From: a virus
Taxonomy: Duplodnaviria; Heunggongvirae; Uroviricota; Caudoviricetes
DNA: 64,000 nt
IMG/VR virus record: IMGVR_UViG_3300034019_002140
Reading direction: 5' to 3' (one strand)
Shown: positions 12,168-52,418 of the stretch, piece by piece
Position numbering within the stretch: position 1 is the stretch's first letter
Layout of the letters: the number at the start of each line of letters is the position of its first letter
Made by a program: the position numbers and the translations under genes
Notes under the pieces: model-generated
The model's input: only the letters and a program-made list of their open reading frames with translations
Told to the model about the DNA's origin: nothing
The model's database searches: none

Positions 12168-12168
12168 T

Positions 12169-17205: not shown

Positions 17206-17227
17206 GTATTTAATTCCTTAATGAAAT

Positions 17228-18637: not shown

Positions 18638-18641
18638 ACCT

Positions 18642-18649: not shown

Positions 18650-18655
18650 TAGCTC

Positions 18656-19150: not shown

Positions 19151-19154
19151 TATC

Positions 19155-19952
19155 ATGAAAGAAAAATCAGTTATTCCAATCAATCAAGAAGAAATTGCGG
19201 TTTATCTCAAAGACATTCGTAAAATATCAGTTATGACCCCTGAAAGAGAAAGGGAGTTGGCTGAAAGAATGTTATCAAATAACATTTCGGAACGAGAAAA
19301 GGAAGATATCAAAAAAGAACTTGTTGAAGGCAATTTAAGGTTTGTTATCACAGTTAGTAAACAATATCAAAATCAGGGTTTAGATTTTCCTGACTTGATT
19401 GCTGAAGGGAATTATGGTCTAATGAAAGCTATTGATAATTTTGATTGGTCGAAAAAACTAAGATTTATATCATACGCTGTTTGGTGGATTAGACAGTCGA
19501 TTCTACAATCATTGAATGAAAATGCAAGAACTATTCGCCTTCCCGTAAATGTTGTCCAAGAACTTCAGAAAGCTAAAAAGGAACTTGAAAATGCCGGTGT
19601 AGAGTTACCTGAAAAGTTCGTGAATTTACCATACACTGTAAATCTAGATAGTCCTTTGAATGAGGATGGAGACACTCTAATGGATGTATTAGTAAACCCA
19701 AACGCCGAATCTGCAGACTCCAATCTTTCTACGGAGCAAACTCTAAAAGACAAATTACTTGGTATGTTGGATGTACTTGACGAACGCGAAAGGGTTATAG
19801 TTGAGGATTATTTTGGGTTATCGGGTTCAACACGAACCTTGGAAGATATTGGTAATGATTTTGATTTGACTAAAGAAAGGGTAAGACAAATAAAAGAGAA
19901 GGCTTTACGAAAACTTCGAAATGAAACAGGTAGTCTGTTCGACTACATGTAA
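19155..19952 (+). CDS. Sigma-70 family RNA polymerase sigma factor with regions 2 and 4.
   Basis: Region 2 is GNLRFVITVSKQYQNQGLDFPDLIAEGNYGLMKAIDNFDWSKKLRFISYAVWWIRQSI. Region 4 HTH is TLEDIGNDFDLTKERVRQIKEKALRKLR. Confidence 0.8.
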   Translation: MKEKSVIPINQEEIAVYLKDIRKISVMTPERERELAERMLSNNISEREKEDIKKELVEGNLRFVITVSKQYQNQGLDFPDLIAEGNYGLMKAIDNFDWSKKLRFISYAVWWIRQSILQSLNENARTIRLPVNVVQELQKAKKELENAGVELPEKFVNLPYTVNLDSPLNEDGDTLMDVLVNPNAESADSNLSTEQTLKDKLLGMLDVLDERERVIVEDYFGLSGSTRTLEDIGNDFDLTKERVRQIKEKALRKLRNETGSLFDYM

Positions 19953-20023
19953 AAAGATTATAAAGGGTGTATTTATTATATACACCCTTTATAATTTAGG
20001 GGGTATATTAAAATTACAATTAT

Positions 20024-20302
20024 ATGAAAAAGTTTATCGAGACAAATTTTACTGTAATAGTTTTGGTCATAGCACTTCTGAGTTTTTTCAAAGGGTGTGG
20101 AGATAGCAGAGAACTTTCCAAAATGAGAAAAGAAGTACAGGCTATTAAAGACTCAACATTCACAAAAACTCAATTGGAAAAAAAATTAAAAATTTCTGGA
20201 TTAGAGGCTGAAAAAAGAATGATTCAAGCAACTGATAGAAAACTTCTTGATGTAAGAAGACAAACAGAAATTGAAGATGAAATCAAAAGATTAAATAATT
20301 AA
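20024..20302 (+). CDS. Small protein with an N-terminal TM helix and a coiled coil.
   Basis: FTVIVLVIALLSFF followed by a charged helical region. Confidence 0.35.
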   Translation: MKKFIETNFTVIVLVIALLSFFKGCGDSRELSKMRKEVQAIKDSTFTKTQLEKKLKISGLEAEKRMIQATDRKLLDVRRQTEIEDEIKRLNN

Positions 20303-20305
20303 AAA

Positions 20306-20926
20306 ATGACTTGGATACAAAAAAATTTCAAAAGTATAATATATGCTGCTTTTTTGGTTCCAATTTTAACAGTAGCTTTCGTCTCAATATCACACGTCAC
20401 AAAATGGTACGGTATATCAAACCCATTTAGCTGGGCTATTTACCTGTCGATTGGTATTGAAATTGCGGCACTTTCAGCTTTAGCTGCGATAAGTGCGAGA
20501 ATGGGTAAAAAGGTATATTTCCCATTTGGTATCGTTACTTTAATTCAATTTTTGGGAAACATTTACTTTGCATATTCTTATATAGATGTTGGTTCACAAG
20601 CATTTAAAGATTGGGTTGATTTAGTCGACCCTATTGTTTCTTTCATGGGTGTTGATTCAGGTGACCCTATAGGTCACAAAAGATTTTTGGCAATATTTGC
20701 AGGCGGAATGTTACCTATAATTTCTTTATCCTTTTTACACATGTTGGTCAAATTTGAGCAGGATGAAAGACAAAAACAAATAGAAATTAAAGTTGAGGAA
20801 ATTATTAAAGCCCAACCAACTGAGATTACTAAAGAAGTAAAACCTGAGGAGGTTCCCAATCAAGAAAAGGAAGATAAACCCGAATATAAAGTTTTGAGTT
20901 ATACTAAAAATGTCAACTCTCAATAA
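20306..20926 (+). CDS. Multi-pass membrane protein, a holin-like candidate.
   Basis: At least 4 hydrophobic helices and a C-terminal charged tail. Confidence 0.4.
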   Translation: MTWIQKNFKSIIYAAFLVPILTVAFVSISHVTKWYGISNPFSWAIYLSIGIEIAALSALAAISARMGKKVYFPFGIVTLIQFLGNIYFAYSYIDVGSQAFKDWVDLVDPIVSFMGVDSGDPIGHKRFLAIFAGGMLPIISLSFLHMLVKFEQDERQKQIEIKVEEIIKAQPTEITKEVKPEEVPNQEKEDKPEYKVLSYTKNVNSQ

Positions 20927-21518
20927 ATACGGAAATTTCAAAGCGTTAGGTAAATACAGAAATAAAAAACAAATCATTTTATGTCATACGTCAAGGGAGG
21001 TAGATAAATATCTAACCTCCCTTCGATTTAGATATAACCAAAGGTTTGATAGAATACCTAATTTTGTGATAACCAAAAAAGGAGAAGTGATTCAACTTTT
21101 GGATGAGTCGTCTCACTCAAGATTTTTTTACAACGAAGAGGTAAATAAAAATTCTGTTATAGTTTGCTTAGAAAACTTAGGATGGTTGGAAAAGAAACCC
21201 CTATCTAACGAGTATATTAGTTGGGATGGGAGTATTTATAATGAGAAAGTTTACGAAAAAAAATGGAGAGATTTTTTCTTTTGGGAACCATATTCTGATG
21301 TTCAAATAACAGAAACATCTAAACTTTGTTCCAAATTGATTGAACTTTTCCAAATAAAAAAAAGTTGTGTCGGTCATAACACTAAGGTTGATGGAATAGA
21401 AAGATTCGAGGGAATTTCCACAAGAAGTAATTATGACCAACGGTTCACTGATTTGAACCCCTCTTTTAATTTTGAAAACTTTGTAAAATTTTTAGAAAAT
21501 GAGCAATTTGCACAATGA
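20910..21518 (+). CDS. Possible Amidase_2/PGRP-like N-acetylmuramoyl-L-alanine amidase (T7-lysozyme-like).
   Basis: IILCHTS ~ IFVHCSAT. NFVITKKGEV ~ YHFIIKRDGTV. NKNSVIVCLENLG ~ NHNSIGVCLVG. The match was made by eye and the full set of Zn ligands is not confirmed. Confidence 0.35.
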   Translation: MSTLNKYGNFKALGKYRNKKQIILCHTSREVDKYLTSLRFRYNQRFDRIPNFVITKKGEVIQLLDESSHSRFFYNEEVNKNSVIVCLENLGWLEKKPLSNEYISWDGSIYNEKVYEKKWRDFFFWEPYSDVQITETSKLCSKLIELFQIKKSCVGHNTKVDGIERFEGISTRSNYDQRFTDLNPSFNFENFVKFLENEQFAQ

Positions 21519-25921: not shown

Positions 25922-26104
25922 ATGGAAACATTAGAACAAATTAAAGAATTGACTGAAGTTTTATCTGTTGATGCTACCAAGTTTTTTAAAGGTAACAAGA
26001 GTGCAGGTACAAGAGCTAGAAAGACAGCTCAAGAGTTGAAAGCTTTACTTCAAAAATTCAGAGGGGAAATTCTTGAACACAAGAAATCAGAAAAAGATGC
26101 ATAA
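25922..26104 (+). CDS. Histone H1-like / Bacteroidetes-type small basic DNA-binding protein.
   Basis: FFKGNKSAGTRARKTAQELKALLQKFR matches the conserved core (F.KGNKAAGTR.RK....LK.L.Q..R) of Bacteroidetes histone-H1-like proteins. Confidence 0.5.
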   Translation: METLEQIKELTEVLSVDATKFFKGNKSAGTRARKTAQELKALLQKFRGEILEHKKSEKDA

Positions 26105-27661: not shown

Positions 27662-28579
27662 ATGAAAAATTACTACAAATTATTAGAAGTTGAAGAGAAT
27701 GCTTCAGAAGATGATATAAAAAAGAGTTATAGAAACCTGTCAAAAAAATATCATCCAGACTTGAACCCTCAAGGGGCGGAGAAATTCAAGGAAATCAATG
27801 AAGCATATGAAGTCCTGAGTAACAAGGAAAAAAGAAAGAAATATGATTTTCAGAAATCTAATCCCTACAACGGAAGTGAATTTTCGGACTTTTTCGCATC
27901 TATGTTTTCGAACCAAAATTTCCAACCACCAAGGAACCATCCAGCACCAGATAAGATTTTGAATCTTCAATTGACCCCTTTAGAATCATATTTAGGACAA
28001 GAAAAAAATATTCAATATTTCAGGGAACTTCATTGCGATACTTGCGTAGGAACAGGAGGGGACAGGGCAATTTGTGGATTATGTGAAGGTACAGGTTTTA
28101 TTGTGAAAACATTCGGTACAGGATTTTTAGTTCAACAGGTCCGGATGGCATGTCCAAATTGCGAGGGACGGGGATATAATCTCATAAATAAATGTTATAA
28201 GTGTTCAGGTAAAGGTACCTTAGGTAATGCAAATGAAATAAAGATAAACATACCTAAAGGTATTGATAGTGGACAATTCGTGAGAATACGGGGTATGGGG
28301 GACTATAGAAATGGTAATTATGGTGACCTCTTGATTCAGATAGAATTGAAAAGTTCCGAAGGATTCGAAAAAATGGGTAGTGATTTAGTATATAACCTTT
28401 ATCTCAATTATGAGGACCTATTGAAGGATAAATATTCAATACCACACCCAGATGGAGAACTTATAGTTCCCGCTCCGAAAAATTTTGACACTTCGAAGCC
28501 TTTGAGGCTTAGGGGTAAGGGATACAGTTCAGGAGACATGTTCATCAAAATACATGTCAAATTTGATAGACCTACTTGA
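27662..28579 (+). CDS. dnaJ: DnaJ (Hsp40) co-chaperone with a J domain and a CR-type zinc finger.
   Basis: J domain NYYKLLEVEENASEDDIKKSYRNLSKKYHPDLNP (HPD motif). Four CxxCxGxG repeats follow (CDTCVGTG, CGLCEGTG, CPNCEGRG, CYKCSGKG), then a C-terminal beta-domain. Confidence 0.85.
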   Translation: MKNYYKLLEVEENASEDDIKKSYRNLSKKYHPDLNPQGAEKFKEINEAYEVLSNKEKRKKYDFQKSNPYNGSEFSDFFASMFSNQNFQPPRNHPAPDKILNLQLTPLESYLGQEKNIQYFRELHCDTCVGTGGDRAICGLCEGTGFIVKTFGTGFLVQQVRMACPNCEGRGYNLINKCYKCSGKGTLGNANEIKINIPKGIDSGQFVRIRGMGDYRNGNYGDLLIQIELKSSEGFEKMGSDLVYNLYLNYEDLLKDKYSIPHPDGELIVPAPKNFDTSKPLRLRGKGYSSGDMFIKIHVKFDRPT

Positions 28580-33137: not shown

Positions 33138-33472
33138 TGGATAGACACCAATATATTGTGAATTTAGAGAGAGATGGTAAATTTTTTTCTAATCTAAAAT
33201 TTACCATACCTGATTTAACCATTCCTAAAAATTTGAAGGATAAAAGATATTTTCCGGTTTATTCGGAAAGAATTCTTGGTCCCAATAATAAAACAACCCT
33301 CAAAAACTACATATTAAAATCGGCACAAGGATTTTATTTGTGTTTCGATAAGTTGGAAAATGATTCATCTGAGGTGACTATTTATTTTGAAGAGAGTCAA
33401 GATATCGAATTACAATTTTTCGTAAATAATTTTTTAAAAACTTTCAAAAATGCAACAACTAACAACAAATGA
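33134..33472 (+). CDS. Hypothetical protein.
   Basis: ORF, translationally coupled (overlapping stop/start). Confidence 0.35.
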   Translation: MMDRHQYIVNLERDGKFFSNLKFTIPDLTIPKNLKDKRYFPVYSERILGPNNKTTLKNYILKSAQGFYLCFDKLENDSSEVTIYFEESQDIELQFFVNNFLKTFKNATTNNK

Positions 33473-33776
33473 ACTAAAAGAAAAAATCAATAACAGAGAA
33501 AACTTCATATTAGATTTATATGCTACGTGGTGCGGACCCTGTAAAATGATGTTGTTTAATTTAGATAAATTAGAGGAGCATTTATCTAAAGAATCTGGAA
33601 ATACTCCAAAATACGGAATTTATAAATTTGACATTGACTCAGATAGAGAATTCATAATGAGTGAGATGGGTATCAGAAGCGTACCAACAATCAAAATATT
33701 CAAAGAAGGAAAAGAAGTTTTTTCAAAAGCGGGAGTTATGTCTACTCTTGAAGTTCTAAATTTATTACAAAATTAA
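33450..33776 (+). CDS. trx: Thioredoxin.
   Basis: WCGPC active site (LYATWCGPCKMM). Confidence 0.8.
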   Translation: MQQLTTNELKEKINNRENFILDLYATWCGPCKMMLFNLDKLEEHLSKESGNTPKYGIYKFDIDSDREFIMSEMGIRSVPTIKIFKEGKEVFSKAGVMSTLEVLNLLQN

Positions 33777-33779: not shown

Positions 33780-34079
33780 ATGTCAAAATTATCTGTTATA
33801 GTTTATACAATGAAGGGATGTCCTCATTGCAAAGACTTCAAAGAGTTATTAGTTAAAGAAGGAATCGAATTTCACGATAGAGATATTGATGAATACGAGG
33901 AAGAGTATGATATATTTTCCAAAGTAACAGACAACGATATGATACCTGCTTTACTTGTCATAGAGGGAGACCTTAAAAAACATGAATCTTTTTTATATGT
34001 TCCCGAAAAAAATTACAACGAGCTTACGGAAGCCGTAGATATTATAAGAGGACATCAAAAAAAATTAGGGATTATCTAA
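33780..34079 (+). CDS. Glutaredoxin/NrdH-like redoxin.
   Basis: CPHC active site near the N-terminus (VYTMKGCPHCKDFKELL), ~99 aa. Confidence 0.65.
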   Translation: MSKLSVIVYTMKGCPHCKDFKELLVKEGIEFHDRDIDEYEEEYDIFSKVTDNDMIPALLVIEGDLKKHESFLYVPEKNYNELTEAVDIIRGHQKKLGII

Positions 34080-34765
34080 ATTGAAATAATTCCTTTTATT
34101 TTCTTTTTTAAAAAATCTAAGTCTTTCTCATAAAAATTTAGTTCTTCGTTCCAATTAGATTCGATGACCTCCTTTTTGAATTTCTGAGCATTGGTATCTA
34201 CACAATCTAAAAAAAGAGAGTTCAGAGTTTCTGAGACGGTGCCATCTTCCTCTTGAAATAAGATTTCTATTTGACCTTTATCTTTTTTTATCGTTAGAAG
34301 TAATTTCTCAAAAACTAAATTAGGTGGTATATTGTATACTAGTCTTTTTGCAAAGAAATAAAGAAGTCGTCCCATTTCCAAAGAATAACCGAATGGAAAC
34401 TTAGAACTAATGACAAGTTCGTCCGCCATTTCTAAAATTTCTTTTTTGATACTACAATTCTCTGAGTTATAAAAAAAGCCTGAAAATTTTTTCACCTCTG
34501 ATAGTTTACACCCATAGTCAATCAAATCTATGGTATTTAGAAGTTTCTTCTCATTTTTCAAGTCTGGATTTTTGGTATAAAATTCGTCTTTGACTTTGTT
34601 CAAATCTAATATTTCTTTAGAGGTGGTCTTCCCCTTTACAACGTAAAAATTTTCACAATCAACAACCTGAATTATAGAATTTTCTTTGAATTGTATTTTA
34701 GATAAAATAAACTCTGAGAGAGAATTTACAAAAAATTCACGAGATGTTCTAGATAATATTTTCAT
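34076..34765 (-). CDS. Hypothetical protein on the minus strand.
   Basis: ORF convergent with the redoxin gene. Confidence 0.4.
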   Translation of the reverse strand: MKILSRTSREFFVNSLSEFILSKIQFKENSIIQVVDCENFYVVKGKTTSKEILDLNKVKDEFYTKNPDLKNEKKLLNTIDLIDYGCKLSEVKKFSGFFYNSENCSIKKEILEMADELVISSKFPFGYSLEMGRLLYFFAKRLVYNIPPNLVFEKLLLTIKKDKGQIEILFQEEDGTVSETLNSLFLDCVDTNAQKFKKEVIESNWNEELNFYEKDLDFLKKKIKGIISI

Positions 34766-34878
34766 CTTATATTTATTACTTCTTCAATCATAATTAATTT
34801 TTGAAAAATAATGAAGACTAACTAATATTTCCAAAACATTTAGTGTATTTGGATATTTATCATTAGTATTTAAAAAGG

Positions 34879-37800
34879 ATGGGAAAAAATATTTTAATTG
34901 TTCCGAGTAATTTCACTGAGAGGACTGCTAACCGTACTCCATTTATAAGTTATGAGGGTACCACGGGTCAGGTTATTCTGACGGTTACACCTTCAGGTAA
35001 AATTAAATTCAGCGGTAATACTGTTGGTGATACAAATTTGATGACAGTAGACCCTGCAAATTCTACAGTTTCAGTAAACACTATTTTTGTAGGAAATTAC
35101 CTTGCAATAGGAGGGGTTCAGGTAATAAATGCCACAAACAATTGGATTGGACCCACAACAGGTATAGCTGGTTCTCAGGGTGCAAAAGGATTCAACGGAA
35201 ATACAGGTCCTACGGGTGCAATAGGTAACACAGGAGCACAAGGTGCTATTGGTGCTGCAGGCGCCACAGGACCTCAAGGTGCTCAAGGTACATTTGGGCC
35301 TAAGGGTGCTCAAGGAACTGCCGGAGCACAAGGAAATACGGGTGCTCAAGGTAACAATGGACCCAAGGGTGCCACAGGAGCACAAGGGTCAGCAGGTGCG
35401 CCAGGTAATACAGGTAACCCTGGACCTACAGGACAAAGTGGACACCCTGGTCCACAAGGACCAACGGGAGCCGTTGGTAATACAGGAGCACAGGGTGCGA
35501 TTGGGGTTACAGGACCCACAGGTAATACAGGTGCTCAAGGACCTGTAGGACCAACAGGTGGACAAGGTGCTCAAGGACCACAAGGAGCTCAAGGTCCAAA
35601 AGGATTTTCAGGTGCACAAGGTGCAACAGGAAACACAGGTGGAACAGGACCCACAGGAAATACAGGACATCCTGGCGCTCAGGGTGCTACAGGAAATCCT
35701 GGACCTACGGGTGTCACAGGGTCTCAAGGAGCCGTTGGACCCACCGGTGCTATAGGAGCTCAAGGACCCAAAGGAGCACAAGGGAATACTGGAAACACAG
35801 GGGCACAAGGAGCCACAGGAAATCCTGGTCCACAAGGTTTCACAGGTAATGTTGGTGCGGTAGGGCCCACAGGTGCGATTGGTCCAAAGGGACCACAAGG
35901 ACCTACAGGAAATACAGGTAATGTGGGACCACAAGGTGCCACAGGTACCACAGGCCCAACAGGTGATACAGGAGCTACAGGACCTGCAGGACCACAAGGT
36001 GCTGTGGGACCAAAAGGAGACACAGGTAATACGGGGGCTCAGGGTGCTGTGGGGCCACAAGGAGCAACTGGTCCGACAGGACTTTCAGGTGCTCAAGGTG
36101 CCCAAGGTGGGGTAGGACCGACAGGGGCTACAGGACCACAAGGAGCTCAAGGACCTGCGGGTAATACGGGTCATTCTGGTGCACAAGGTGCTACAGGACC
36201 AACAGGGCCTGGAGGTAACACAGGTGCTCAAGGGGCGGTTGGACCGAAAGGGGCTACAGGACCTCAGGGAGCTCAAGGACCCGCAGGTGGTACAGGTAAC
36301 ACAGGGGCTCAGGGTGCCACAGGACCACAAGGTTCGCAAGGGGCGGGTGGTGGAACAGGTCATCCAGGTGCCCAAGGTCCCCAAGGAGCGATAGGACCAC
36401 AAGGTTCACAAGGAGCCACAGGACACACTGGTGCTCAAGGCCCACAAGGTGCCACAGGACCACAAGGCTCACAAGGGGCTACAGGACATCCTGGTGCCCA
36501 AGGTAGTCAGGGTGCGGCCGGACCAAAAGGACCTAATGGATTCACAGGTCATCCTGGAGCGCAAGGACCGCAAGGTTCAGCGGGAGCAACGGGTGCTCAA
36601 GGTCAGACAGGTCATCCGGGGGCACAAGGTGCAGGTGGACCTACTGGGTCTCAAGGACAAGGGGGTGGTACAGGACATCCTGGAGCTCAAGGTGCCATAG
36701 GACCCAAAGGACCTCAAGGACCTACAGGTGCTACTGGCCATCCTGGTGCTCAAGGTGCTGGTGGAGGTACTGGTAACGAGGGGGCACCAGGTTTCACAGG
36801 ACATCCAGGTGCACAAGGTGCTACAGGACCAGGAGGTAGTCCGGGTGCTCAGGGTTCACAAGGTTCCCAAGGACCTCAAGGAGCTCAAGGAAATACCGGT
36901 CCGACCGGCGTACCGGGAGCTACGGGGCATCCTGGTGCTCAAGGAGCGGTCGGTCCAACTGGCCCACAAGGTCCGTCAGGTAATACAGGACATCCTGGTG
37001 CACAGGGAGCAACGGGTCCTACAGGACCTCAAGGAAATACAGGTGCCACGGGTGCTATTGGACCCCAAGGTGCGGGAGGTGCCACAGGCTCACAAGGGGC
37101 TGTAGGACCTCAAGGAGCAACTGGAGCCACAGGAGCCCAAGGTCCACAAGGTCCAGGTGGTCCTACAGGACCTGGCGGGGCACAAGGTGCTCAAGGAGGA
37201 GGAGGTGCCACAGGACCTCAAGGACCACAAGGTCCAAAGGGACCTCAGGGTGCTACAGGTCCTACAGGGGGTCCTGGTCCAACTGGACCACAAGGTCCTC
37301 AGGGACCAACAGGAGCACCTGGACCTACAGGTGCCACAGGACCACAAGGTCCTACAGGTGGTCAAGGTACACAAGGCTCATTAGGTGCAACAGGAGGGCA
37401 GGGTGCTCAAGGTTCCCAAGGAGCTGTTGGACCTGGAGGTGTAACATGTCAACTGAATAGTATTATTGCTCTTACAGGAAGTAGAAACCCATGTGTAGGT
37501 GTTTGTAATATCACTGTACCCAACGTTTATCCATACACTCAAACTGCTTACACAGCCACACAAAACAAATATTTCGATGCTACGAATTGTTCAAATGGTA
37601 CTTGTGATTGGAATACTTATAACTGGGAACAATGGAATAGTGCATGTTATTCATTAAACGCCACTTGTGGTAATGGTACCTATCAGCAGGCTTGTGCTTA
37701 TTCTGACGTGAAACTTAAAACAGGTATTGAAACCTTGAAAGATTCTCTTATAAAAATATTGGAAATAGAAACTGTTGAGTATGATTGGAACGAAAAAAAT

Positions 37801-38040
37801 TGGGGTACCAAAGAAGAGTATGAATATTTTGCTCAGATGGGAAGATTACATCAGATAGGTCTAATTGCACAAAACGTAAGAATTCATTTCCCTGAAGCTG
37901 TTGGAATCGGTCCTGATGGATATTATTACATTGACTACAAGAAATTAAATTCTGTTGTAGTTGAAGGTATAAAAGAACAACAAGTATTTATTGAAGAGAT
38001 AACTAAACAAGTAGACGAATTAGAAATTAAATTGAGATAA
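34879..38040 (+). CDS. Collagen-like fibre protein 1: N-terminal domain, ~800 aa of G-X-Y repeats, a Cys-rich knob, and a C-terminal peptidase-S74 intramolecular chaperone domain.
   Basis: Continuous G-X-Y triplets ([25 protein letters not shown]...). The C-terminus [12 protein letters not shown]...VEYDWN...IGLIAQNV...FPEAV...[20 protein letters not shown] matches the phage fibre intramolecular-chaperone domain. Confidence 0.8.
35140..37440 (+). repeat. Collagen-like G-X-Y triplet repeat array in fibre gene 1.
   Basis: 9-nt ggt-nnn-nnn periodicity over ~2.3 kb. Confidence 0.8.
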
Positions 38041-41024
38041 TGCCATCTAATGTAATTATATATCCTACCGGTAGAACGTGGAACACTGACCCTCATTTTA
38101 TTTTTGATGATGGAACTAATAAATTACAATTCAACGTTTTAACTGACGCAATAAGTCTGTCTGCTGGGTCAATTTCAAATAATTTTGTAATTGGTACAAA
38201 AGGTTCAGACAATGGTGTCACAACCTCAGGGGCTTCCGCACAGTCACTATATTTCAACGCCTCACAATTCATAGGTTCTGGAGGTGTTTGGGTCGGACCA
38301 ACTGCCGGTATCGCTGGTGCTCAGGGAGCTCAAGGTGCTCAGGGAGCCCAAGGTGGTCAGGGAGCTCAAGGAGCTCAAGGTGCAAATACAGGAGCTCAAG
38401 GTGCTACAGGTGCCCAAGGAGCAACAGGCGCACAAGGTGCGGCAAACACAACACAAGGTGCTCAAGGTACAATTGGGTCTCAAGGAGCTCAGGGTGCCAC
38501 AGGAGCTCAGGGTGGAAATACGGGTGCTCAAGGAGCCACAGGAGCTCAAGGTAACCAAGGAGCTCAAGGTGCTCAAGGAGGAACAGTTGGAGCTCAGGGT
38601 GCTCAGGGTGGTCAGGGAGCTCAAGGTGCTCAAGGTGCTCAAGGTGCAAACACAGGTGCTCAGGGTGCGACAGGTCCCCAAGGAGCCCAAGGAGCGGTAG
38701 GTGCTACAGGAGGAGTTCAAGGTGCTCAAGGTGCCGTCGGTGCCACAGGTGATTTAGGTGCTCAGGGAGCTCAAGGAGCCAATACCGGAGCCCAAGGTGC
38801 TCAAGGTGCACAGGGAACTCAAGGTGCACAAGGTGCTCAGGGAGGAAATACTGGTGCACAAGGTGCTCAGGGTACTCAGGGTACACAAGGTGCTACAGGT
38901 GCTCAAGGAGGAGTACAAGGTGCTCAAGGTGCTATAGGTACTACAGGACCACAAGGTGCTCAAGGGGCCCAAGGGGCAAACACAGGAGCTCAAGGTGCTC
39001 AAGGTGGTCAAGGTGCTCAAGGAGCTCAAGGTGCTCAAGGAGGAGTACAAGGTGCTCAAGGGGCTACAGGTCCTACGGGGGTACAAGGAGCACAAGGTGC
39101 ACAAGGAGGAGTACAAGGAGCACAAGGTGCAACAGGACCTCAAGGAGCTCAAGGGGCTCAGGGATTACAAGGTGGACTTCAAGGTGCCCAAGGTGCAACA
39201 GGTGCTCAAGGTGCACAAGGTTCTACAGGTGCTCAAGGAGGTACCCAAGGAGCTCAAGGTGCCACAGGACCACAAGGTGCACAAGGAGCAATAGGAGCTC
39301 AAGGAGGAGTACAAGGTGCTCAGGGTGCAACAGGAGCAGCGGGAGCTCAAGGTGCTCAAGGAGCCCAAGGTGCAAATACAGGTGCTCAAGGCGCCACAGG
39401 ACCTCAAGGTGCTCAGGGGGCGACAGGAGCCCAAGGGGGTGTACAAGGTGCTCAAGGCGCCACAGGTCCTCAAGGTGCTCAAGGTGCTCAGGGGGCTCAA
39501 GGTGCAAATACAGGAGCTCAGGGTGCTACAGGTCCTCAAGGTGCTCAAGGTGCTCAGGGAGCCCAGGGTGCCAGTCCAGGTGCTCAGGGCGCTCAAGGTC
39601 CAAAAGGACCTCAAGGTGCTCAAGGAGCCCAAGGTGGAAGTGCAGGTGCCACGGGTGCGCAAGGTGCAACAGGTCCTCAAGGAGCTCAAGGTGCCCAAAG
39701 TGGTATAACAGGACAGGCAGGAGCTCAGGGTGCTACAGGTCCCCAAGGGGCACAAGGTGCTCAAGGTGGAAGTGCCGGTGCTACAGGAGCAGTCGGTGCA
39801 CAAGGAGCTACAGGAGCACAAGGAGCCCAAGGTGCTAATCAAGGAGCACAAGGTGCTACGGGTGCTACAGGAGCTCAAGGTGCTCAAGGTGCTCAAGGTG
39901 CTAATCAAGGAGCCCAAGGTGCGACAGGTCCACAAGGTGCTCAGGGTTCACAGGGTGCACAAGGTGCTAATCAGGGAGCACAGGGGGCTCAAGGAGCTCA
40001 AGGTGCTCAAGGTTCTCAGGGAGCACAAGGAGCCAATCAGGGTGCACAAGGTGCTACAGGTCCACAAGGTGCACAAGGTGCAATTGGACCAAATAATACG
40101 ACACAAGGTGCTCAAGGTGCTCAGGGAGGTCAAGGTACTCAGGGAAGTCAAGGAGCACAGGGTGCTAACCAAGGCGCTCAAGGGGCACCTGGAGTTCAAG
40201 GAGCTCAAGGAGCACAAGGTGCACAGGGTGCTAATCAAGGGGCTCAGGGAGCACCTGGAGTTCAAGGTGCTCAAGGTGCTCAAGGTTCTCAAAGTGCTAC
40301 TTCGGGAGCACAAGGTTCTACAGGACCTCAAGGTGCTCAAGGTTCTACAGGACCCGGTCCTGGTCCGCAAGGAGCCCAAGGTCCACAAGGATTGACTGGA
40401 GGTGGAGGGAACACAGGTGCACAAGGGTCCCAAGGAGCTACAGGAGCCACGGGTCCTACAGGTGCTCCTGGTGGAACAGGAGCCACAGGTGCTCAAGGAG
40501 CCACAGGATTTGCTGGAAGTACTCAGGGTGCTCCAGGTGTACCAGGACCACAGGGGGCTCAAGGTCCGACAGGTGTTGGTGGTGCCACAGGCCCAACAGG
40601 CCCAACAGGTTTCAAGGGGAATACAGGCCCAACAGGCCCAACAGGTGCCACAGGTGCTCAGGGAGCACAAGGCGCTAAGTCAGATAAAAGATTAAAAGAT
40701 AATATAGTTGAATTCAAAGAACCTCTCACCCGTCTGAAACAAATCCAAGGTGTTAAATTTACTTGGGACCATGAACATCCTAAAATTAAATTTCATAAGC
40801 ACCTGAATGCTAAAGAAGCGTTCACAGGTGATACTTATGGATTCATAGCTCAAGATGTAGAAAAAGTATTTCCTGAGATTGTTGACACTGACCCAACTGA
40901 TGGATACAAATCTATGGATTATGGACTCTTGGTTAGTTTAGCCTTCGCATCAATTAAAGAGAATCAAAAAAGAATATTGTCAGTGAAAGATAGAATAAAT
41001 AGATTAAAACAAGTAGTGAACTAA
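38040..41024 (+). CDS. Collagen-like fibre protein 2 with a C-terminal S74 intramolecular chaperone domain.
   Basis: The ATG overlaps the upstream TAA (ATGA-type coupling). G-X-Y repeats are dominated by GAQ. The C-terminus is [32 protein letters not shown]...[15 protein letters not shown]...[18 protein letters not shown]. Confidence 0.8.
38290..40680 (+). repeat. Collagen-like G-X-Y triplet repeat array in fibre gene 2.
   Basis: ggtgctcaaggwgc units repeated. Confidence 0.8.
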
Positions 41025-44000
41025 TGGCATCATACGTAGTATATTCAGGGACGAGTTATCTAAATGCGTGTAATTCTGTGGCATCACAGACTATTTATAC
41101 ACCGTGTCCATCACTAAGTGGAGGTTGTGTAGTCTATACAGATGCAGGTTATACTAATGTTATTACTTTCTCTCCATTATTACCTAATTTATATCTAAAG
41201 GATTCTGTTGATACAACGGTTTGGAAGATAAATAGGACAGGAACTGTCACGGAGGTTAGAAAATGTACTGAATTTTCAGGTGATGAAAATATAATTGTTT
41301 ATCCTGATGGAGCCAATTTTCAACTTATAGATTCTGGAGGAACTGCCACTAACTGGTATATGGAGAATGGTGAGTTGAAATTTGGAACTTTAACTTCCAC
41401 TTTAGCAAGAATAAGTACTTCCTATCCAAACCTCAGAGTCAGTGGGGGGTCAATAACACTTACTAACAAACTTGCAAATGCCTCGGGAGATTTAATAAAT
41501 TCAACAGGATGGGTCGGAGCTAAATTACCTCAAGGTCCAACGGGTGCTCAAGGTTCACAAGGTTCTACTGGTGCTCAAGGAGCTCAAGGGGGTCAAGGAG
41601 CACAGGGTACCCAAGGTTCAACAGGTGCCCAAGGTTCTCAGGGTGCTCAAGGGGGACAAGGTGCTCAAGGTGCTCAAGGGTCACAAGGACCTACAGGTGC
41701 ACAAGGTTCACAAGGTGGTCAAGGTTCACAAGGCTCACAAGGTTTTACAGGTGCTCAGGGTTCACAAGGAGCTCAAGGAGGACAAGGTGCTCAGGGTTCA
41801 CAAGGAACTTTGGGACCCACAGGAGCTCAAGGTTCTCAAGGTGGTCAAGGAGCCCAAGGAGCCCAAGGTTCAACAGGTGCTCAAGGTTCGCAAGGAGCAC
41901 AGGGTGGACAGGGCGCTCAAGGTTCACAAGGGGCTAAAGGTCTCACAGGTGCTCAAGGGGCACAAGGTGGACAAGGTGCCCAAGGTGCTCAAGGTTCCCA
42001 AGGTACAACAGGAGCCCAAGGTTCCCAAGGGGGACAAGGTGCTCAAGGTGCTCAAGGCGCAGTTGGTCCTACAGGTGCTCAAGGAGCTCAGGGTGGACAA
42101 GGGGCTCAAGGAGCTCAAGGGGCTGTCGGTCTCACAGGAGCTCAAGGAGCTCAAGGTGGGCAAGGTGCTCAAGGAGCACAAGGGGCTCTCGGTCCTACAG
42201 GAGCTCAAGGTTCCCAAGGTGGACAGGGTGCTCAAGGAGCACAAGGTTCACAAGGTTTAACAGGTGCGCAAGGGTCCCAAGGTGGTCAAGGAGCTCAAGG
42301 AGCTCAGGGAGGACAAGGTGCTCAAGGTGCCCAAGGTCCTAAAGGTCCACAAGGTGCTCAAGGAGCCCAAGGTGCTCAAGGTTCAACAGGAGCCCAAGGT
42401 TCCCAAGGTGGAACAGGAGCCCAAGGTGCTCAAGGTTCAACAGGAGCCCAAGGTTCACAAGGTTCACAAGGTGGAACAGGAGCTCAAGGAGCCCAAGGTT
42501 CAACAGGAGCCCAAGGTGCTCAAGGTTCCCAAGGAGGACAAGGTGCCCAAGGGGCTCAAGGTACAACAGGTGCCCAAGGAGCTCAAGGAGCTACAGGAGG
42601 TCAAGGTGCTCAGGGTTCTCAAGGACCCACAGGAGCCCAAGGTTCTCAAGGTGCCGGAGGAGGACAAGGTGCACAAGGAGCTCAAGGTATAGTTGGAGCC
42701 CAAGGTGCTCAAGGTGGAGGTGGAGGACAGGGTGCACAAGGAGCACAAGGAACGACAGGTCCCGTAGGTGCACAAGGTTCACAAGGTGGGCAAGGTGCTC
42801 AAGGTTCCCAAGGTGCACAAGGTGCCACAGGAGCTCAAGGTTCTCAGGGCGTCGCCGGAGCTCAAGGTGCTCAAGGTGCTCAAGGAGCTGTTGGTAGTCA
42901 AGGTTCACAAGGAGGACAGGGTGCACAAGGAGCTCAAGGTTCACAAGGAGCTCAAGGTGCAACTGGTCCTGGTGGCGGACAAGGTGCTCAGGGAGCACAA
43001 GGAGCCACAGGTTCACAAGGTGCTCAAGGTGGAGGTGGTGGACAAGGTGCCCAAGGTGCTCAAGGGCCCGTCGGTTCACAAGGTTTTCAAGGAACAACTG
43101 GAGGTCAAGGTGCACAAGGTGCGCAAGGACCTACTGGACCTACAGGTATCACAGGACCTAAAGGGGGTCAAGGTGCACAAGGTGCTCAGGGAGGACAAGG
43201 TGCACAGGGACCACAAGGTCATATCGGTGCAAACGGTGCAACTGGTGTTCCTGGTCCTATTGGTCCCAAAGGACCTACGGGTCCTACGGGAGGTCAAGGT
43301 GCTCAAGGAGCTCAAGGACCTGGTGGTGCTCAAGGGGCTCAAGGTCCTACGGGAGGTCAAGGTGCTCAAGGAGCTCAAGGACCTGGTGGTGCTCAAGGGG
43401 CTCAAGGTCCTACGGGAGGTCAAGGTTCCCAAGGTGGAGGAGGAGCTCAAGGGGCTCAGGGTCCAACAGGACCTGGAGGTGCTCAAGGTGCTCAAGGAGC
43501 TCAAGGTCCCAAAGGTCCAATAGGTGGACAAGGTTCTCAAGGTCCCACAGGGGCTCAGGGTACCGCCGGAGGACAAGGTTCTCAAGGCGGTGGTGGTGCC
43601 CAAGGTGCTCAAGGTGCTCAAGGTCCGCAAGGAGGCCAAGGTGCTCAAGGCGGTGGTGGTGCCACAGGAGCTCAAGGACCTCAGGGGGGTCAAGGTGCCC
43701 AAGGACCACAAGGTGGTCAAGGTCCACAAGGTGCACAAGGTGCAACCGGTCCAAATGGTTTACAAGGTGCTCAAGGTGCACAAGGTACCACTGGTTCTGA
43801 CCTAAGATTAAAAAAGGACGTAAAAGAAATACAATCCCCACTAGAAAAAGTCCTGAAATTGAGAGGTGTTTCATTCTATTGGAATAAATTAAATGATGAA
43901 ACATCCCAATCAGGTAAACATGATATTGGATTCATTGCCCAAGAAATAGGTCATATATTACCTGAATTGGTTTTCAAGAAAAACACCGAGAACGCATATT

Positions 44001-44131
44001 TCATGGTAAAATATGCTGAAGTAATAGCTGTTTGTTTAGAAGCCATTAAAGAACAATCCTTGATTTTGGAATCTAAAGAAATAAAACTTGATGAGTTAGA
44101 GACAATAGCCAAGGAAAGAGGACTTATTTAG
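41024..44131 (+). CDS. Collagen-like fibre protein 3 with a longer N-terminal domain and a C-terminal S74 intramolecular chaperone domain.
   Basis: The ATG overlaps the upstream TAA. ~170-aa N-terminal domain, then G-X-Y repeats. The C-terminus is [31 protein letters not shown]...[16 protein letters not shown]...[15 protein letters not shown]. Confidence 0.8.
41535..43795 (+). repeat. Collagen-like G-X-Y triplet repeat array in fibre gene 3.
   Basis: ggtgctcaaggttcacaagg units repeated. Confidence 0.8.
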
Positions 44132-45000
44132 ATTTCGGTCTTTTGAATTAAATCTCTTATTTCGAAACCAGTTTGGTATAACATCGACAGAAATTTTTTC
44201 CAAATTTCTGGGTTATACTTTTTAATCAATTCAACATAATAAATGTAGTAAGGTTCTTCTCCTCCTCTCTCAGACATAAAATCTGCAAGTTGAGGATTAT
44301 CGGTGGTTAAATTTTTGAAAACTCTGATAAGGTCATTTCCCAAATGTTCATCATTTATTCTAAATAAAATATCCTTCGAGAGTTTAGATAGTGGGTCACC
44401 CTTGGCAAAATAATTGATTATATTTTTTAATGATTTTTCTAAAAATTGTAGGTTTTCAATTTTTCTGTTTCTTTTAACTCTTCTTTCAAATTCGAGAACC
44501 AAACCCTCCAAAAATTCATTTGAAATTGCAAAAAATTCTATTGGATGACCCCAATAATCTTTATCTGATTTCTCATTGTAAGTCACCATATATTTGGGAC
44601 TAAACAAATGAGATTGTGTTGGGTCACTGGCATGTATCATTTCATGATATAGTGTAAGATAAAGTGTTTTTTTTGACTCGTAGTGTTTTGGATTTACTTC
44701 GATTACAATATCTGCCGGGTCGACTGACTTTTGAGGTTTTGTACCCATCTGACCCATGTAGGGTAGTCTTGGGTTTACCACGACTCTAGCTAAACCCTCT
44801 ACTCCATCGGCTAATTTAAAAGGAATGACATCAACTAGTTCTTTTCCTTTATAAGGTTTATTTCTATCAGACCATAATTTTTCTGTGACGGATTTCATTC
44901 TATCTCTCACATCATCAGAAAATTTATATCTCTGTGCCTCCAATATTAGATTGGTGATTATATTTCTTATTTTATTCATTTTTGTAAATCTACCCCCCAA
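44128..45000 (-). CDS. Putative zinc metallopeptidase-like protein with an HExxH motif.
   Basis: [16 protein letters not shown] contains HEMIH. Confidence 0.4.
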
Positions 45001-45758
45001 TTTATTGGAATCTCTTTGAGACTTATTTTACTTACGAATTTATCAAAAGAGTTCTTGAAGGTCACCTGAGCTTTCTTGATGTCTTTTATTCTTGCCATAT
45101 CAGGTAAAATCCCTGTAGATAAATATGCTTGAATCTCATCATCAATTACATTTTCACCATAACCCATGTTTTTGATTTTTCTTGTCATGGAATCTAATGT
45201 AGATGGATTTAGGTTATTGATATTATAAGATTGTAAGTTTTTATAGTTAGGTGAACTATACCACAACCCATGTGCTAATTCATGATAGATTAAACTCAAG
45301 TCCTCTCCATCTGTTTGGTCGATACCGATTAAATAAAAATTGTTGTTACCTGTTTTTTCTTTTATGGTATCAATAATTGAAAACATAATAAGGTCAAAAT
45401 AATTTATGTCAGGAATTACTTTTATACACGATTCGATTGAATCACACGGTAAATTATAACCAGACCAATCTTCATGGTAAGTGAAAATGTCATTCTTAGT
45501 TTTTTCCTTATAGAATTTGACAAAATCGACCCATTTAAAACCTTGTCCTCTGAATGTCTCTGAGTCTGACTCATAAAATTCTTGATAACGCATGAAAACT
45601 CTTGCACGGAGTTTATCATCTTTAATTACAACGGCAAAAATCTTTGGGAATATCTCAAACAATCTAATCTTAGATAGAATGTTTTTAATATTCTTCGGGG
45701 GGTTTTTAGGTGGACTTTGAACCCTCTCATGAATGGTATTTATACTTTTATTATTCAT
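44976..45758 (-). CDS. Putative zinc metallopeptidase-like protein with an HExxH motif.
   Basis: LSLIYHELAHGLWY contains HELAH. Confidence 0.4.
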   Translation of the reverse strand: MNNKSINTIHERVQSPPKNPPKNIKNILSKIRLFEIFPKIFAVVIKDDKLRARVFMRYQEFYESDSETFRGQGFKWVDFVKFYKEKTKNDIFTYHEDWSGYNLPCDSIESCIKVIPDINYFDLIMFSIIDTIKEKTGNNNFYLIGIDQTDGEDLSLIYHELAHGLWYSSPNYKNLQSYNINNLNPSTLDSMTRKIKNMGYGENVIDDEIQAYLSTGILPDMARIKDIKKAQVTFKNSFDKFVSKISLKEIPINWGVDLQK

Positions 45759-46741
45759 CAGAAAAAATCACTGAAATACATGTTTATATTTTTATCGACC
45801 TCTCTACTATCGGGGTAGTCAGAAATCCTTGGGTACAAACAATCATTGTTTTCGTCTAATATTCTAATAAAATACGCCTCATCTTCAATTGCGTTTGAAT
45901 ACTTGTTATGTAAGAAATCGTAAATTTGTCCTTCGAAATCCTTTATTTTCATTTTGTATTGATACTTCATAGTATCTTTTTTATAAGGATGTGGGGATGA
46001 TATCCACTCACCCTCATAGAAATAATCACCCAATTCATTCATTATATTTTTATAAATTTGACTCTCATATGCTGAATTGTAAGCGTCGGAGTGTATTCTA
46101 TACAAATCACCTTCAATATCCAAATATTTTTTCATCAATTCATTGAATGTATCTCTATCATCCACAATTCTGGCTATGTTTGATTCGTTTACTTCAACGT
46201 AGTCTGGATGACCTTGTTCAGAGGCAATCAATTCTAGTTCCTCAGTCTCTGTTTCTACCCGTTCATTTTTTAAATCATCTATAATCTTCTTGTATAAAGT
46301 TTTCAAATTTTCTTGATTTAATTCCTCAACCACGTCTCTATGAACATCATCAGTTGTTTCTGAATAATATTCAAACCAATCATTATCCTCACCCAAGATA
46401 TTCTCAATGGTGTCTCGTGAAAAATCTCTACTACTATCACAAAAAAGTGTTGCTAATTCTTTTCTGTCGTCCAAAATCAAATAAGCATCACCTTTTTCAT
46501 CAATTTGAACATCTCCTAAAATGCGATTCATGTATTTGTAAAACTCTTGTTTATCATTCTCCATGGTCCAAATGAAATATTGGTTTTGCCATTCTCTACT
46601 GTCATTGGCTAATGGGTCTAATAAATGAAAAAGTTTTTTCGATTTAAGCACCGCAAAAAAATCATCATAATCATTGTTGAAGTATTTCAACGCCCATGTG
46701 TCACCATCATTAAAATCACTTATAATTTCTTGCCAATTCAT
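45758..46741 (-). CDS. Hypothetical acidic protein on the minus strand.
   Basis: ORF in the minus-strand block. Confidence 0.4.
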   Translation of the reverse strand: MNWQEIISDFNDGDTWALKYFNNDYDDFFAVLKSKKLFHLLDPLANDSREWQNQYFIWTMENDKQEFYKYMNRILGDVQIDEKGDAYLILDDRKELATLFCDSSRDFSRDTIENILGEDNDWFEYYSETTDDVHRDVVEELNQENLKTLYKKIIDDLKNERVETETEELELIASEQGHPDYVEVNESNIARIVDDRDTFNELMKKYLDIEGDLYRIHSDAYNSAYESQIYKNIMNELGDYFYEGEWISSPHPYKKDTMKYQYKMKIKDFEGQIYDFLHNKYSNAIEDEAYFIRILDENNDCLYPRISDYPDSREVDKNINMYFSDFF

Positions 46742-51182: not shown

Positions 51183-51564
51183 GGGTGACCCGAAATTAAA
51201 AAATACTGGAGGTAAGCAATATTCTATGTTTGTGGGACGGTTCCAACCATTTCACGGGGGACATCGATGGATTGTGGATGAATGTCTGAACGAAGGAAAA
51301 AATGTTTTAATTTGTATAAGAGATATTCAACCTGATGATAAAAATCCTTTTAGTGCTCAAGAAGTTGAATCCAATATCAAAAAAGAGTTGTGGAAATATT
51401 TGACCGACGAGAAAGTAAAAGTTATGATTATACCTGATATCGAATCTGTCAATTTTGGTAGAGGTGTTGGTTATGATATAATCGAACACATACCACCTCA
51501 AGAGGTTGGGGAGATATCTGCAACAAAAATTAGAGAAGAATTAAAAAAAGAAGGAAAATTATAA
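51163..51564 (+). CDS. HxGH-motif nucleotidyltransferase of the cytidylyltransferase/NMNAT-like superfamily.
   Basis: FVGRFQPFHGGHRWIV matches the archaeal-NMNAT/NadM-type GRFQPFHxGH signature. C-terminal ISATKIREEL matches the conserved (I/Y)S(G/T)T.IR motif. Confidence 0.5.
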   Translation: MRKIHVEGDPKLKNTGGKQYSMFVGRFQPFHGGHRWIVDECLNEGKNVLICIRDIQPDDKNPFSAQEVESNIKKELWKYLTDEKVKVMIIPDIESVNFGRGVGYDIIEHIPPQEVGEISATKIREELKKEGKL

Positions 51565-52418
51565 TGCAAACTAATAAGATATATCAAGGTGATTGTATTG
51601 AGGTTATGAAAACATTTCCCGAAAATTCAATTGACCTCATAGTAACATCTCCACCCTATGGTGTAGGAATCGATTATGACACTTTTGAAGACGACATCCC
51701 TTTTGAAGATTATAAATTGTTTTCAACAAACTGGATGACAGAAGCTTTCAGAGTGTTGAAGGAAGATGGGAGAATTGCTTTGAACATTCCATATGAAATA
51801 AATCGTCAGAGTCAGGGTGGAAGAATTTTCATGGCGTCTGAACTTTGGCGGATAATGCAGATAATTGGATTCAAGTTTTTCGGGATTGTTGACCTAAAAG
51901 AAAATTCTCCTCATAGGAGTAAAACCACCGCATGGGGTTCTTGGATGTCACCATCCGCACCGTACATTTACAACCCCAAGGAGTGTGTTATTTTGGCGTA
52001 CAAGAAAAACCACATAAAGAAAGTAAAAGGTCAACCAGAGTGGGTAGGAATCCCTGAGGAGGTCACCAACGAAGAGGGAAAGACCCGAACTAAAATGATG
52101 TATACTGAAGAACAGAAAAGAGAGTTCATGGATTTAGTTTACGGGGAGTGGGATTATTTTGCCGACACGAAACAATTGACAAAGGCAACATTTTCATTAG
52201 ATATTCCTTTAAAGGCAATAAAAATTTTAACTTATAAAAATGATTTGGTTCTTGACCCTTTTGCTGGTAGTGGAACAAGTTTGGTTGCTGCAGTTATTTC
52301 CGACCGTAATTGGATTGGTATCGAGCTTAGTGAAAACTACTGTGGAGTCGCTCAAAAACGAGTACAACATTTCATAGATAAAAAAAACCAACCTGAACTT
52401 GATTTTGAAAAGGGGTAA
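51564..52418 (+). CDS. DNA methyltransferase, beta-class (N6A or N4C).
   Basis: Catalytic motif IV LIVTSPPYG comes first. The AdoMet motif I VLDPFAGSGTSLVAA lies near the C-terminus. The permuted order indicates the beta class. Confidence 0.75.
   Translation: MQTNKIYQGDCIEVMKTFPENSIDLIVTSPPYGVGIDYDTFEDDIPFEDYKLFSTNWMTEAFRVLKEDGRIALNIPYEINRQSQGGRIFMASELWRIMQIIGFKFFGIVDLKENSPHRSKTTAWGSWMSPSAPYIYNPKECVILAYKKNHIKKVKGQPEWVGIPEEVTNEEGKTRTKMMYTEEQKREFMDLVYGEWDYFADTKQLTKATFSLDIPLKAIKILTYKNDLVLDPFAGSGTSLVAAVISDRNWIGIELSENYCGVAQKRVQHFIDKKNQPELDFEKG

Follow-up and report, generated by a model that had tools for sequence, protein, structure and literature searches.

Three tandem collagen-like genes ending in predicted Peptidase_S74 chaperone domains keep closely matched triplet numbers across relatives of an uncultured freshwater jumbo phage

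What keeps three very long collagen-like proteins of one virus at the same length? The question is raised by a 64,000-nucleotide (nt) stretch of viral DNA (IMG/VR record IMGVR_UViG_3300034019_002140; 'the window' denotes the whole stretch) that belongs to an uncultured freshwater jumbo phage of about 320 kb. A 9,253-bp locus within it (34879-44131) comprises three consecutive genes on the + strand, A (34879-38040), B (38040-41024) and C (41024-44131), whose products of 1053, 994 and 1035 amino acids (aa) are built around shafts of Gly-X-Y triplets. A first-pass annotation of the window had described three consecutive open reading frames (ORFs) of about 1000 aa joined by TAATG stop/start overlaps, and both the ORFs and the overlaps (38038-38042 between A and B, 41022-41026 between B and C) are present as it placed them. 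It had missed the most informative feature of the locus, the concerted length of the three shafts across related phages, which suggests that the shafts work as a physically matched set.

The three proteins follow a similar plan. Protein A runs from an N-terminal domain (N-domain) through 254 unbroken triplets and a Cys-rich tip to a predicted Peptidase_S74 chaperone domain. In B an N-domain (aa 1-89) is followed by interrupted collagen (aa 90-880) and the S74 domain (aa 881-994), and in C an 85-aa Cys-containing extension precedes the N-domain (aa 86-170), about 252 triplets and the S74 domain (aa 925-1035). Pfam Collagen (PF01391) matches all three proteins (A, E = 3e-94; B, 1.7e-65; C, 8.5e-69), and direct counting of the glycine phase places Gly at every third residue over 254 triplets in A, 250 in B and about 252 in C.

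Each shaft has its own periodic structure. The A shaft (35161-37446, + strand; aa 95-856) has no interruptions and a periodicity of 21/42 aa, with His recurring every 21 aa at shaft positions 401-548 and a period of 63 nt according to Tandem Repeats Finder (TRF). The C shaft (41534-43795, + strand; from aa 171 to about aa 924-926) is likewise unbroken, with about 24 copies of a 21-aa/63-nt period and, at 43280-43434, a 63-nt tandem repeat that is 97% identical. In the B shaft (38307-40679, + strand) the 250 triplets fall into 33 runs with a 22-aa/66-nt period of about 30 copies (TRF, 30.5). Thus, uninterrupted triplets, which had been reported for all three proteins, are found in A and C but not in B, where there are 32 interruptions. 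Of these, 29 consist of a single extra residue (G-X-Y-Z-G), almost always after exactly seven triplets, and this periodic insertion is conserved in all B orthologues. All three shafts are rich in Gln, Ala and Thr and in GAQ and GPQ triplets, almost uncharged, and contain only 4-12% Pro. The host-guest stability scales of Persikov et al. reportedly place Ala in the X position and Gln in the Y position among the most stabilising non-imino residues, and such pairs would explain the GAQ/GPQ richness of these Pro-poor, almost uncharged shafts. Since a collagen helix rises 0.286 nm per residue, the triplet residues of the window would give shafts about 215-225 nm long, in agreement with the first-pass expectation of fibres hundreds of nanometres in length; those of the relatives would measure about 80-270 nm.

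To examine the trio across relatives, we used exact-protein look-ups of homologues of the A C-terminus, a scan of metagenomes with a B-type profile and a scan of IMG/VR with an A-type profile. An IMG/VR scan with a single B C-terminus returned distant S74 proteins only (at most 41% identity); its patterns were too specific, whereas the alignment-based scans worked. Every complete locus consists of one A-type, one B-type and one C-type gene, as told by their C-termini, in the order A-B-C except in L179, where it is B-A-C. The numbers of triplets in A/B/C are 254/250/252 in the window, 198/197/197 in L089, 161/153/160 in L006, 118/114/117 in L099, 221/219/219 in L179, 152/148/148 in L180, 150/148/145 in L181, 97/95/96 in L182, 266/269/268 in L183, 211/210/212 in L184, 118/114/117 in L185, 126/152/144 in L186, 177/167/176 in L187, 142/138/136 in L188, 195/195/193 in L189 and 312/302/311 in L190. 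Between phages the numbers therefore range from 95 to 312, but within a phage they match, with Pearson r of 0.991-0.997 and a mean within-locus coefficient of variation (CV) of 1.6% over 16 loci that are phylogenetically related, fall into about 12 length classes and are not independent samples. None of 100,000 permutations gave a within-locus match as tight as that observed.

It is the number of triplets that is conserved rather than the length of the protein, because the match survives globular inserts of 70-240 aa confined to one paralogue (about 240 aa in B of L179, 221 and 92 aa in A of L188, and 123 aa in A of L190). Counted in residues, the B span is consistently about 4% longer than the A span. 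Nearly all loci show periodicities of 21/42/63 aa in A and C and of 22/44/66 aa in B, so that the building block everywhere is a unit of seven triplets, to which B adds one residue. Only L186 (8357-14422) departs clearly from the length match; it may be a transitional state or a tolerated mismatch. In a near-identical strain of the window phage (7 single-nucleotide polymorphisms), C has lost 36 nt and, from the tandem repeat at 43280-43434, one exact 63-nt unit, and has 241 triplets instead of 252 (254/250/241). Repeat-unit slippage thus does occur in C, and these two mismatched sets show that the length constraint is not absolute. More distant aquatic loci with tandem collagen and S74 genes have unmatched lengths (for example, 1095, 1641 and at least 980 aa in L107).

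Because the DNA of the locus is highly repetitive, and because many public scaffolds break here or carry gaps of N, the tandem array could be suspected of being an assembly artefact, an alternative that the first-pass annotation had itself raised. We regard this as scarcely credible. All 9,253 bases of the locus recur with 100% identity in two contigs of metagenome-assembled genomes (MAGs) at NCBI, from independent assemblies, and an index of public assemblies lists the exact B protein in 52 blocks. The three-gene layout recurs in the 16 diverged loci, including contigs of 272-321 kb that contain no N in the 20-kb stretches read. Moreover, the longest exact repeat is merely 84 nt within a gene (24 nt in A, 33 nt in B and 84 nt in C) and 29 nt between genes.

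The same figures answer a question that had been posed with the array, namely how such repetitive paralogues avoid recombinational collapse. The longest exact words common to paralogues are 22-29 nt, and at the nucleotide level the paralogues reach about 71-80% identity in their best local alignments. Within a gene, identical 7-aa peptides have a third-position identity of 0.48-0.58, against 0.45-0.53 for random codon choice, and this closeness to the random-codon expectation indicates that synonymous sites are saturated. Gene conversion as the cause of the equal lengths was rejected on the basis of the 71-80% identity, the different repeat units and the shortness of the exact identity (at most 29 nt).

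Pfam, sequence motifs, phmmer searches and matches to PHROG families agree in identifying the C-termini of A, B and C as Peptidase_S74 (PF13884) intramolecular chaperone domains. The Pfam model scores 36.2 bits in A (aa 942-1008), 49.0 bits in B (aa 881-948) and 52.6 bits in C (aa 925-983), in each case at the extreme C-terminus and above the cut-off of 22 bits. The domains (A, 37705-38037, aa 943-1053; B, 40680-41021; C, 43796-44128; all + strand) are marked by the motif S-D-x-x-x-K, which reads S942-D-V-K-L-K947 in A, S881-D-K-R-L-K886 in B and S925-D-L-R-L-K930 in C, and the GxIAQ and PE motifs are also present. The S, D and K residues are invariant over 47 A-type homologues, and the S-D motif aligns with SDRRIK of the phage S16 long tail fibre structure 6f45. 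We take S and K to be a catalytic dyad, as in endoNF, and in A cleavage is predicted after Ser942. In phmmer searches B and C match 6f45 (E = 1.7e-5 and 6e-6, respectively) and C also matches the MyRF ICA domain 7dc3; more than 20 PHROG families of tail fibres have C-terminal ends that match those of the three proteins; and structural comparison gave fold matches to 3gw6, 4uw8 and 3gud. Collagen proteins with S74 chaperones, as first proposed, are thus borne out by Pfam, PHROG and phmmer, but their assignment to the tail is unproven.

The three proteins differ in what lies between helix and chaperone. A alone has a distal domain there, a tip of about 85 aa with 10 Cys (37447-37704, + strand; aa 857-942) between the helix and SDVKLK. 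This tip is present in all A orthologues and is modelled by AlphaFold 2 (AF2) with pLDDT of 83-94 over residues 1-80; it has no sequence match in the PDB and no fold match beyond the S74 part. It would be kept after the predicted cleavage and is presumed to be the receptor-binding end. In B and C the collagen leads directly into the cleavage serine (...GAK-S|DKRLK in B, ...GTTG-S|DLRLK in C), so that, if the predicted cleavage occurs, mature B and C would lack a distal globular domain and end in bare collagen. The phase of the catalytic Ser relative to the last in-phase Gly also differs: all B proteins checked have G-x-x-S, and most C proteins have G-P-S (window 40671-40685 and 43787-43801, and orthologues). 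This difference could relate to chain stagger at the helix/chaperone junction.

At the other end, the N-domain of A (34879-35160, + strand; aa 1-94), which is all-beta, is presumed to be the virion anchor. The first-pass annotation held that the N-terminal anchoring domains differ; we find instead that the N-domains of A, B and C, each of about 90 aa, are homologous, with 27-33% identity and the pattern MxxNIIIYP...W[IV]G, and that C of the window has its 85-aa extension, with 5 Cys, ahead of the N-domain. The junction into the collagen that had been attributed to all three proteins, WxGPTxGIAG, is exact in A and B only, and the sequence of C differs there. Searches of PHROG, Pfam and NCBIfam with the N-domain gave no match, and it resembles no known fibre adaptor. 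A word-indexed search found one fragment as a relative, and an exhaustive profile search found 44, mostly fragmentary. The profile search also returned an unrelated high-GC S74 fibre protein of 714 aa (P0124) that carries V-I-D-x-x-G-x-W-V-G-P-x-x-G-L-x-G twice; collagen segments in S74 fibres may often be introduced by this short pre-collagen motif. Some A- and B-type fibres contain, a few triplets past the N-domain, a globular domain of about 225-240 aa (...PIPPAFT...YSSFGTKF...CxGYG), seen in L179 (4273-7680), L188 (7259-10333), P0088, P0094, P0095, P0102 and P0111. In L179 an A-like N-domain and this proximal insert are fused to a B-type shaft; this fusion and the B-A-C gene order point to modular shuffling at the proximal end.

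On balance, we lean towards the view that A, B and C are three separate homotrimeric virion fibres (A3, B3 and C3) that are made together, serve as a set and have a co-selected shaft length. S74 domains trimerise, chaperone the trimeric shaft upstream of them and then cleave themselves off after a conserved Ser, as in endoNF, T5 pb1 and GA-1, and collagen helices nucleate at the C-terminus and zip towards the N-terminus. By analogy with the endosialidase and T5 pb1, the S74 domain of each chain would trimerise, the trimer would nucleate zipper-like folding of the collagen helix of about 250 triplets from C to N, and the domain would then release itself by cleavage behind the conserved Ser. Fibres of about 215-225 nm would result, rooted through the shared, lineage-specific beta N-domain, with mature A carrying a small disulfide-rich distal tip that would presumably bind the receptor. 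Selection would hold the three shafts at equal triplet number in seven-triplet units, and the length of the set would shift between phages through slippage of repeat units.

Homotrimers are favoured by a geometric argument, because the 20-43 one-residue insertions of B preserve the stagger of the helix only if all three chains carry them. They are also favoured because A and C have their sporadic interruptions at positions that do not align, because A alone has an 85-aa tip between helix and chaperone, and because large inserts are found in single paralogues only. We count on the same side the solved S74 domains (3gw6, 3gud, 4uw8 and 7dc3), all of which we take to be homotrimers. Several points weigh against three separate virion fibres. 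The neighbourhood of the genes is of replication or early type (DnaJ, Dam, thioredoxin, glutaredoxin, primase, SbcCD) and contains no tail module, so that a virion location is presumptive, and the N-domain is unlike any known fibre adaptor; for these two reasons 'tail fibre' is a provisional label. The kinship of the 16 loci means that their correlation overstates the number of independent events, although many coordinated changes, in three genes without long identical DNA, are still needed to account for about 12 length classes. What is conserved is the triplet number and not total protein length. Separate flexible fibres provide no obvious reason for a length match of 1-2% over a threefold range, a precision that would be easier to understand if chains or helices were held physically in register. 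Finally, the absence of a distal binding domain from mature B and C would be odd for independent receptor-binding fibres.

A serious but less probable alternative is a single heterotrimeric, C1q-like collagen to which A, B and C contribute one chain each and in which the divergent S74 domains select and register the chains, a single A tip sits at the end of the fibre and the extra residue of B forms a periodic one-chain bulge that gives curvature or flexibility. The locus does encode three distinct chains with equal triplet numbers (16 loci; r 0.99, CV 1.6%), which agree to 1-2% over a threefold range even when one chain has globular inserts; the chains have the seven-triplet unit in common, their genes form a conserved overlapping operon, and neither mature B nor mature C would have its own distal domain. 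That the match is in triplets rather than in residues fits either a heterotrimer or an in-register bundle, and the different Ser phases (G-x-x-S in B, mostly G-P-S in C) are a weak hint of the one-residue stagger that a heterotrimer needs. However, each of the 20-43 unmatched insertions in one chain would break the Gly packing of a mixed helix, and neither A nor C has anything that corresponds to the periodic insertions of B. Sporadic interruptions in A do not align with those in C except for a loose cluster in the last 10-30 triplets or so; 85 aa separate the helix of A from its S74 domain, whereas in B and C helix and domain are directly adjacent; and the mismatched sets (126/152/144 in L186 and 254/250/241 in the strain variant) persist. 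We also count against it that we know of no natural prokaryotic or viral heterotrimeric collagen and of no heteromeric S74 domain. In its fullest form, a natural A:B:C heterotrimer registered by co-evolved, self-removing S74 domains, with one B bulge per seven-triplet repeat providing programmed curvature or hinges, this model appears rather unlikely to us; if true, it would be the first such collagen outside animals, and the concerted gain and loss of units would be compensatory evolution of a single molecule.

The equal numbers of seven-triplet units (about 36/36/36 in the window; about 28, 23 and 17 in relatives) would also be expected if the homotrimers A3, B3 and C3 were packed side by side in register as a thicker rope or bundle, held together by their Gln-rich surfaces and the seven-triplet axial repeat. 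The Gln/Ala/Thr-rich, almost uncharged character of the shafts and a common root formed by the homologous N-domains would suit such packing, but there are no conserved landmarks (Lys, Asp/Glu, His or GPKGP) at matching heights in A, B and C, and the period of B is 22 rather than 21 aa, so that B has the same axial repeat as A and C only if its extra residue contributes nothing to the rise. We judge this arrangement improbable. We give even less credence to the proposal that the proteins are not virion fibres but collagen-like products in or on the infected cell, serving as a surface coat or in superinfection exclusion or adhesion, with S74 as a folding module. Such a role would be in keeping with the position of the locus among early or replication-type genes, next to those for DnaJ, thioredoxin and glutaredoxin, and with the lack of similarity between the N-domain and known virion adaptors, yet the structural genes of jumbo phages are commonly scattered, which makes a location outside the tail module weak evidence. 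Furthermore, the N-termini show no evident signal peptide or membrane anchor (sequences read by eye, without a predictor), and the overwhelming majority of S74 domains form the C-terminal ends of fibres and spikes of phages or other viruses (PHROG matches; PMC12220804).

Among known systems, complement C1q is the closest analogy for the trio, with A, B and C chains that come from three tandem paralogous genes and have collagen parts of equal length. The C1q A chain, moreover, carries a one-residue insertion, an extra Thr at the kink. C1q differs in that its C-terminal gC1q head selects the chains and is retained, its interruptions are co-located and its collagen comprises only about 27 triplets; two of the tests described above lean against a heterotrimer for the trio. 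With the S74 fibres and spikes (K1F endosialidase, T5 pb1, the GA-1 neck appendage and S16 gp37) the trio shares a C-terminal domain of about 110 aa with S-D-x-x-x-K and presumably its role in trimerisation, folding of the upstream trimeric shaft and self-cleavage. In those proteins the shaft is a triple beta-helix or other beta-structure, followed by a binding domain, whereas the shafts of the trio consist of about 250 collagen triplets, which in B and C continue right up to the cleavage serine.

Long Gly-X-Y filaments on the surface of a virus or spore are also found in Mimivirus and other giant-virus fibrils, Bacillus BclA, Pasteuria and Streptococcus Scl, and NCBIfam Scl/Lcl models match the trio repeats below their cut-offs. 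The trio differs from these collagens in its tailed-phage-like genome, its S74 trimerisation domains and its lack of an LPXTG or spore anchor. The parallel with giant viruses drawn in the first-pass annotation holds as an analogy only, given a phage-like neighbourhood (primase, SbcCD, sigma factor, methyltransferases), phage-type gene content and syntenic IMG/VR viral relatives of 317-321 kb, which set the locus apart from Nucleocytoviricota fibrils. Pfam scans of 20 neighbouring ORFs revealed no collagen-modifying hydroxylase or glycosyltransferase.

Collagen-like fibres also occur in prophages of E. coli O157:H7, and their collagen parts are reportedly short, tens of triplets. Those side-tail-fibre proteins (Ghosh et al. 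2012, PMC3368898) are, like the trio, phage-encoded, collagen-like and, as we propose for the trio, trimeric, with non-collagen trimerisation domains; they differ in having other flanking domains, no S74 and no length-matched set of paralogues. Collagen-like repeats fused to a C-terminal S74 domain are known from polinton-like viruses and virophages, and collagen shafts from fibres of phages and extracellular contractile injection systems (eCIS) (PMC12220804; PMC12923769). Those two reports describe mixed modular fibres with one or two Pfam collagen domains, and no conserved orthologous trio, matched lengths or periodic one-residue insertion. In our own samples of S74-anchored loci, 12 of 80 from a viral collection and 11 of 80 from a metagenome collection contained collagen ORFs, some in tandem, the second sample including B orthologues of the present lineage. 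The combination of collagen and S74 is thus already known by itself. As far as our searches show, the orthologous trio, its concerted lengths, the periodic one-residue insertion, the lineage-specific N-domain and the Cys-rich tip have not been described.

The trio amounts to a natural experiment in which triplet numbers track one another within about 2% over a range of 95-312 while one member always inserts one residue every seventh triplet. It makes three questions testable with the sequences now available: what sets or limits the length of a viral fibre, how very long collagens that are Pro-poor, uncharged and free of hydroxyproline fold in register, and whether S74 domains can specify heterotrimers. 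Control of heterotrimer composition and register is a long-standing difficulty in recombinant collagen design, a field in which a self-cleaving tag able to bring defined homo- or heterotrimers of tunable length into register would be useful.

At the DNA level, the TAATG overlaps had been taken to imply coupled, probably stoichiometric translation of A, B and C. The overlaps exist, but they are poor support for stoichiometric coupling because such overlaps are common between phage genes. A promoter-like site (TTGAAA-16-TAATAT; 34801-34828, + strand), found by consensus scan only and therefore weak evidence, lies in the 113-bp divergent intergenic region upstream of A, and no terminator-like sites were found between A, B and C. 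The GC content is 0.48-0.56 inside the trio and about 0.32 outside, a difference that follows from amino-acid composition, through the codons for Gly, Ala, Pro and Gln. Recent horizontal acquisition as its cause was rejected, as codon choice equals the phage background, and for the same reason we conclude that the genes are native to the phage. Codon usage barely differs between the three copies, contrary to what had first been suggested.

The repeats have side effects on gene calling. Long stop-free ORFs in other frames or on the opposite strand are a by-product of the repeats, for example one of 256 aa on the - strand of the window (39165-39935). Public gene calls (L006, 8123-14593; L089, 7994-15703; and other JGI and ENA loci) split the collagen genes into many short wrong-frame ORFs, and only the S74 ends are called correctly. 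This fragmentation accounts for the near absence of full-length family members from protein databases.

Many freshwater metagenomes contain syntenic relatives of the phage; the sequences that carry such relatives include a contig of 272.7 kb and two viral contigs from IMG/VR, of 317 and 321 kb (IMGVR_UViG_3300032242_003291 and IMGVR_UViG_3300032050_000001). A nucleotide search of GenBank phages with the flank gave two weak matches (66-74% identity), to uncultured phages of 634-642 kb; protein searches with the primase and the A C-terminus found no close cultured phage, and the nearest cultured primase, of a Flavobacterium phage, is 32% identical. The host is probably a member of the Bacteroidota, a weakly founded assignment based on a protein with SprB repeats, the relationship of the primase to that of a Flavobacterium phage and the occurrence of S74 relatives mostly in Bacteroidota MAGs. 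A scan of genome contigs for the host was suggestive rather than decisive, yielding one 2.7-kb contig (55% identity) binned with a Betaproteobacteria MAG and distant S74 proteins, mostly of Bacteroidota MAGs.

The trio lies outside any recognisable tail or baseplate module. Window positions 9123-21518 and 51564-52418 make up a replication/transcription region, where a primase, SbcC and SbcD, an exonuclease, at least three DNA methyltransferases and a phage sigma factor (phrog_351) are encoded. Fibre genes are unusual in such surroundings. The other neighbours of the trio encode DnaJ, Dam, a leucine-rich-repeat (LRR) protein, a PcfJ-like protein, thioredoxin (Trx), glutaredoxin (Grx) and unknowns. 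The divergent neighbour upstream (34076-34765, - strand; 229 aa) is syntenic with the trio in 11 of the 12 relatives tested, and a convergent gene (45758-46741, - strand; 327 aa) lies downstream of it in all 12. Two genes between C and this 327-aa neighbour (44128-45000 and 44976-45758) are missing from some relatives. None of the conserved neighbours (229, 290, 260 and 327 aa) has a significant family in Pfam, PHROGs or NCBIfam, and the flanks of the relatives are conserved at 34-87% protein identity.

The thioredoxin and glutaredoxin genes (33450-33776 and 33780-34079) lie immediately upstream of the trio and are syntenic in most relatives; they are possibly linked to disulfides of the A tip (10 Cys) and the C extension (5 Cys), but may equally be nucleotide-metabolism genes. 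The phage encodes a full-length DnaJ (27662-28579) with a J domain, a CXXCXGXG zinc finger and a C-terminal domain. The identical protein is indexed in 284 assembly blocks, which shows that the phage is very widespread in freshwater data sets. A 60-aa gene at about 25922-26104 (L001, 261-443) matches Pfam Hc1 (histone H1-like nucleoprotein) in the precomputed JGI annotation of the contig. At the start of the window are three large ORFs (80-2593, 3518-5623 and 5648-7894), which may encode other virion surface proteins; one of them has SprB repeats, which hint at Bacteroidota-type surface adhesin modules, together with a weak match to a PHROG annotated as 'virion structural protein'.

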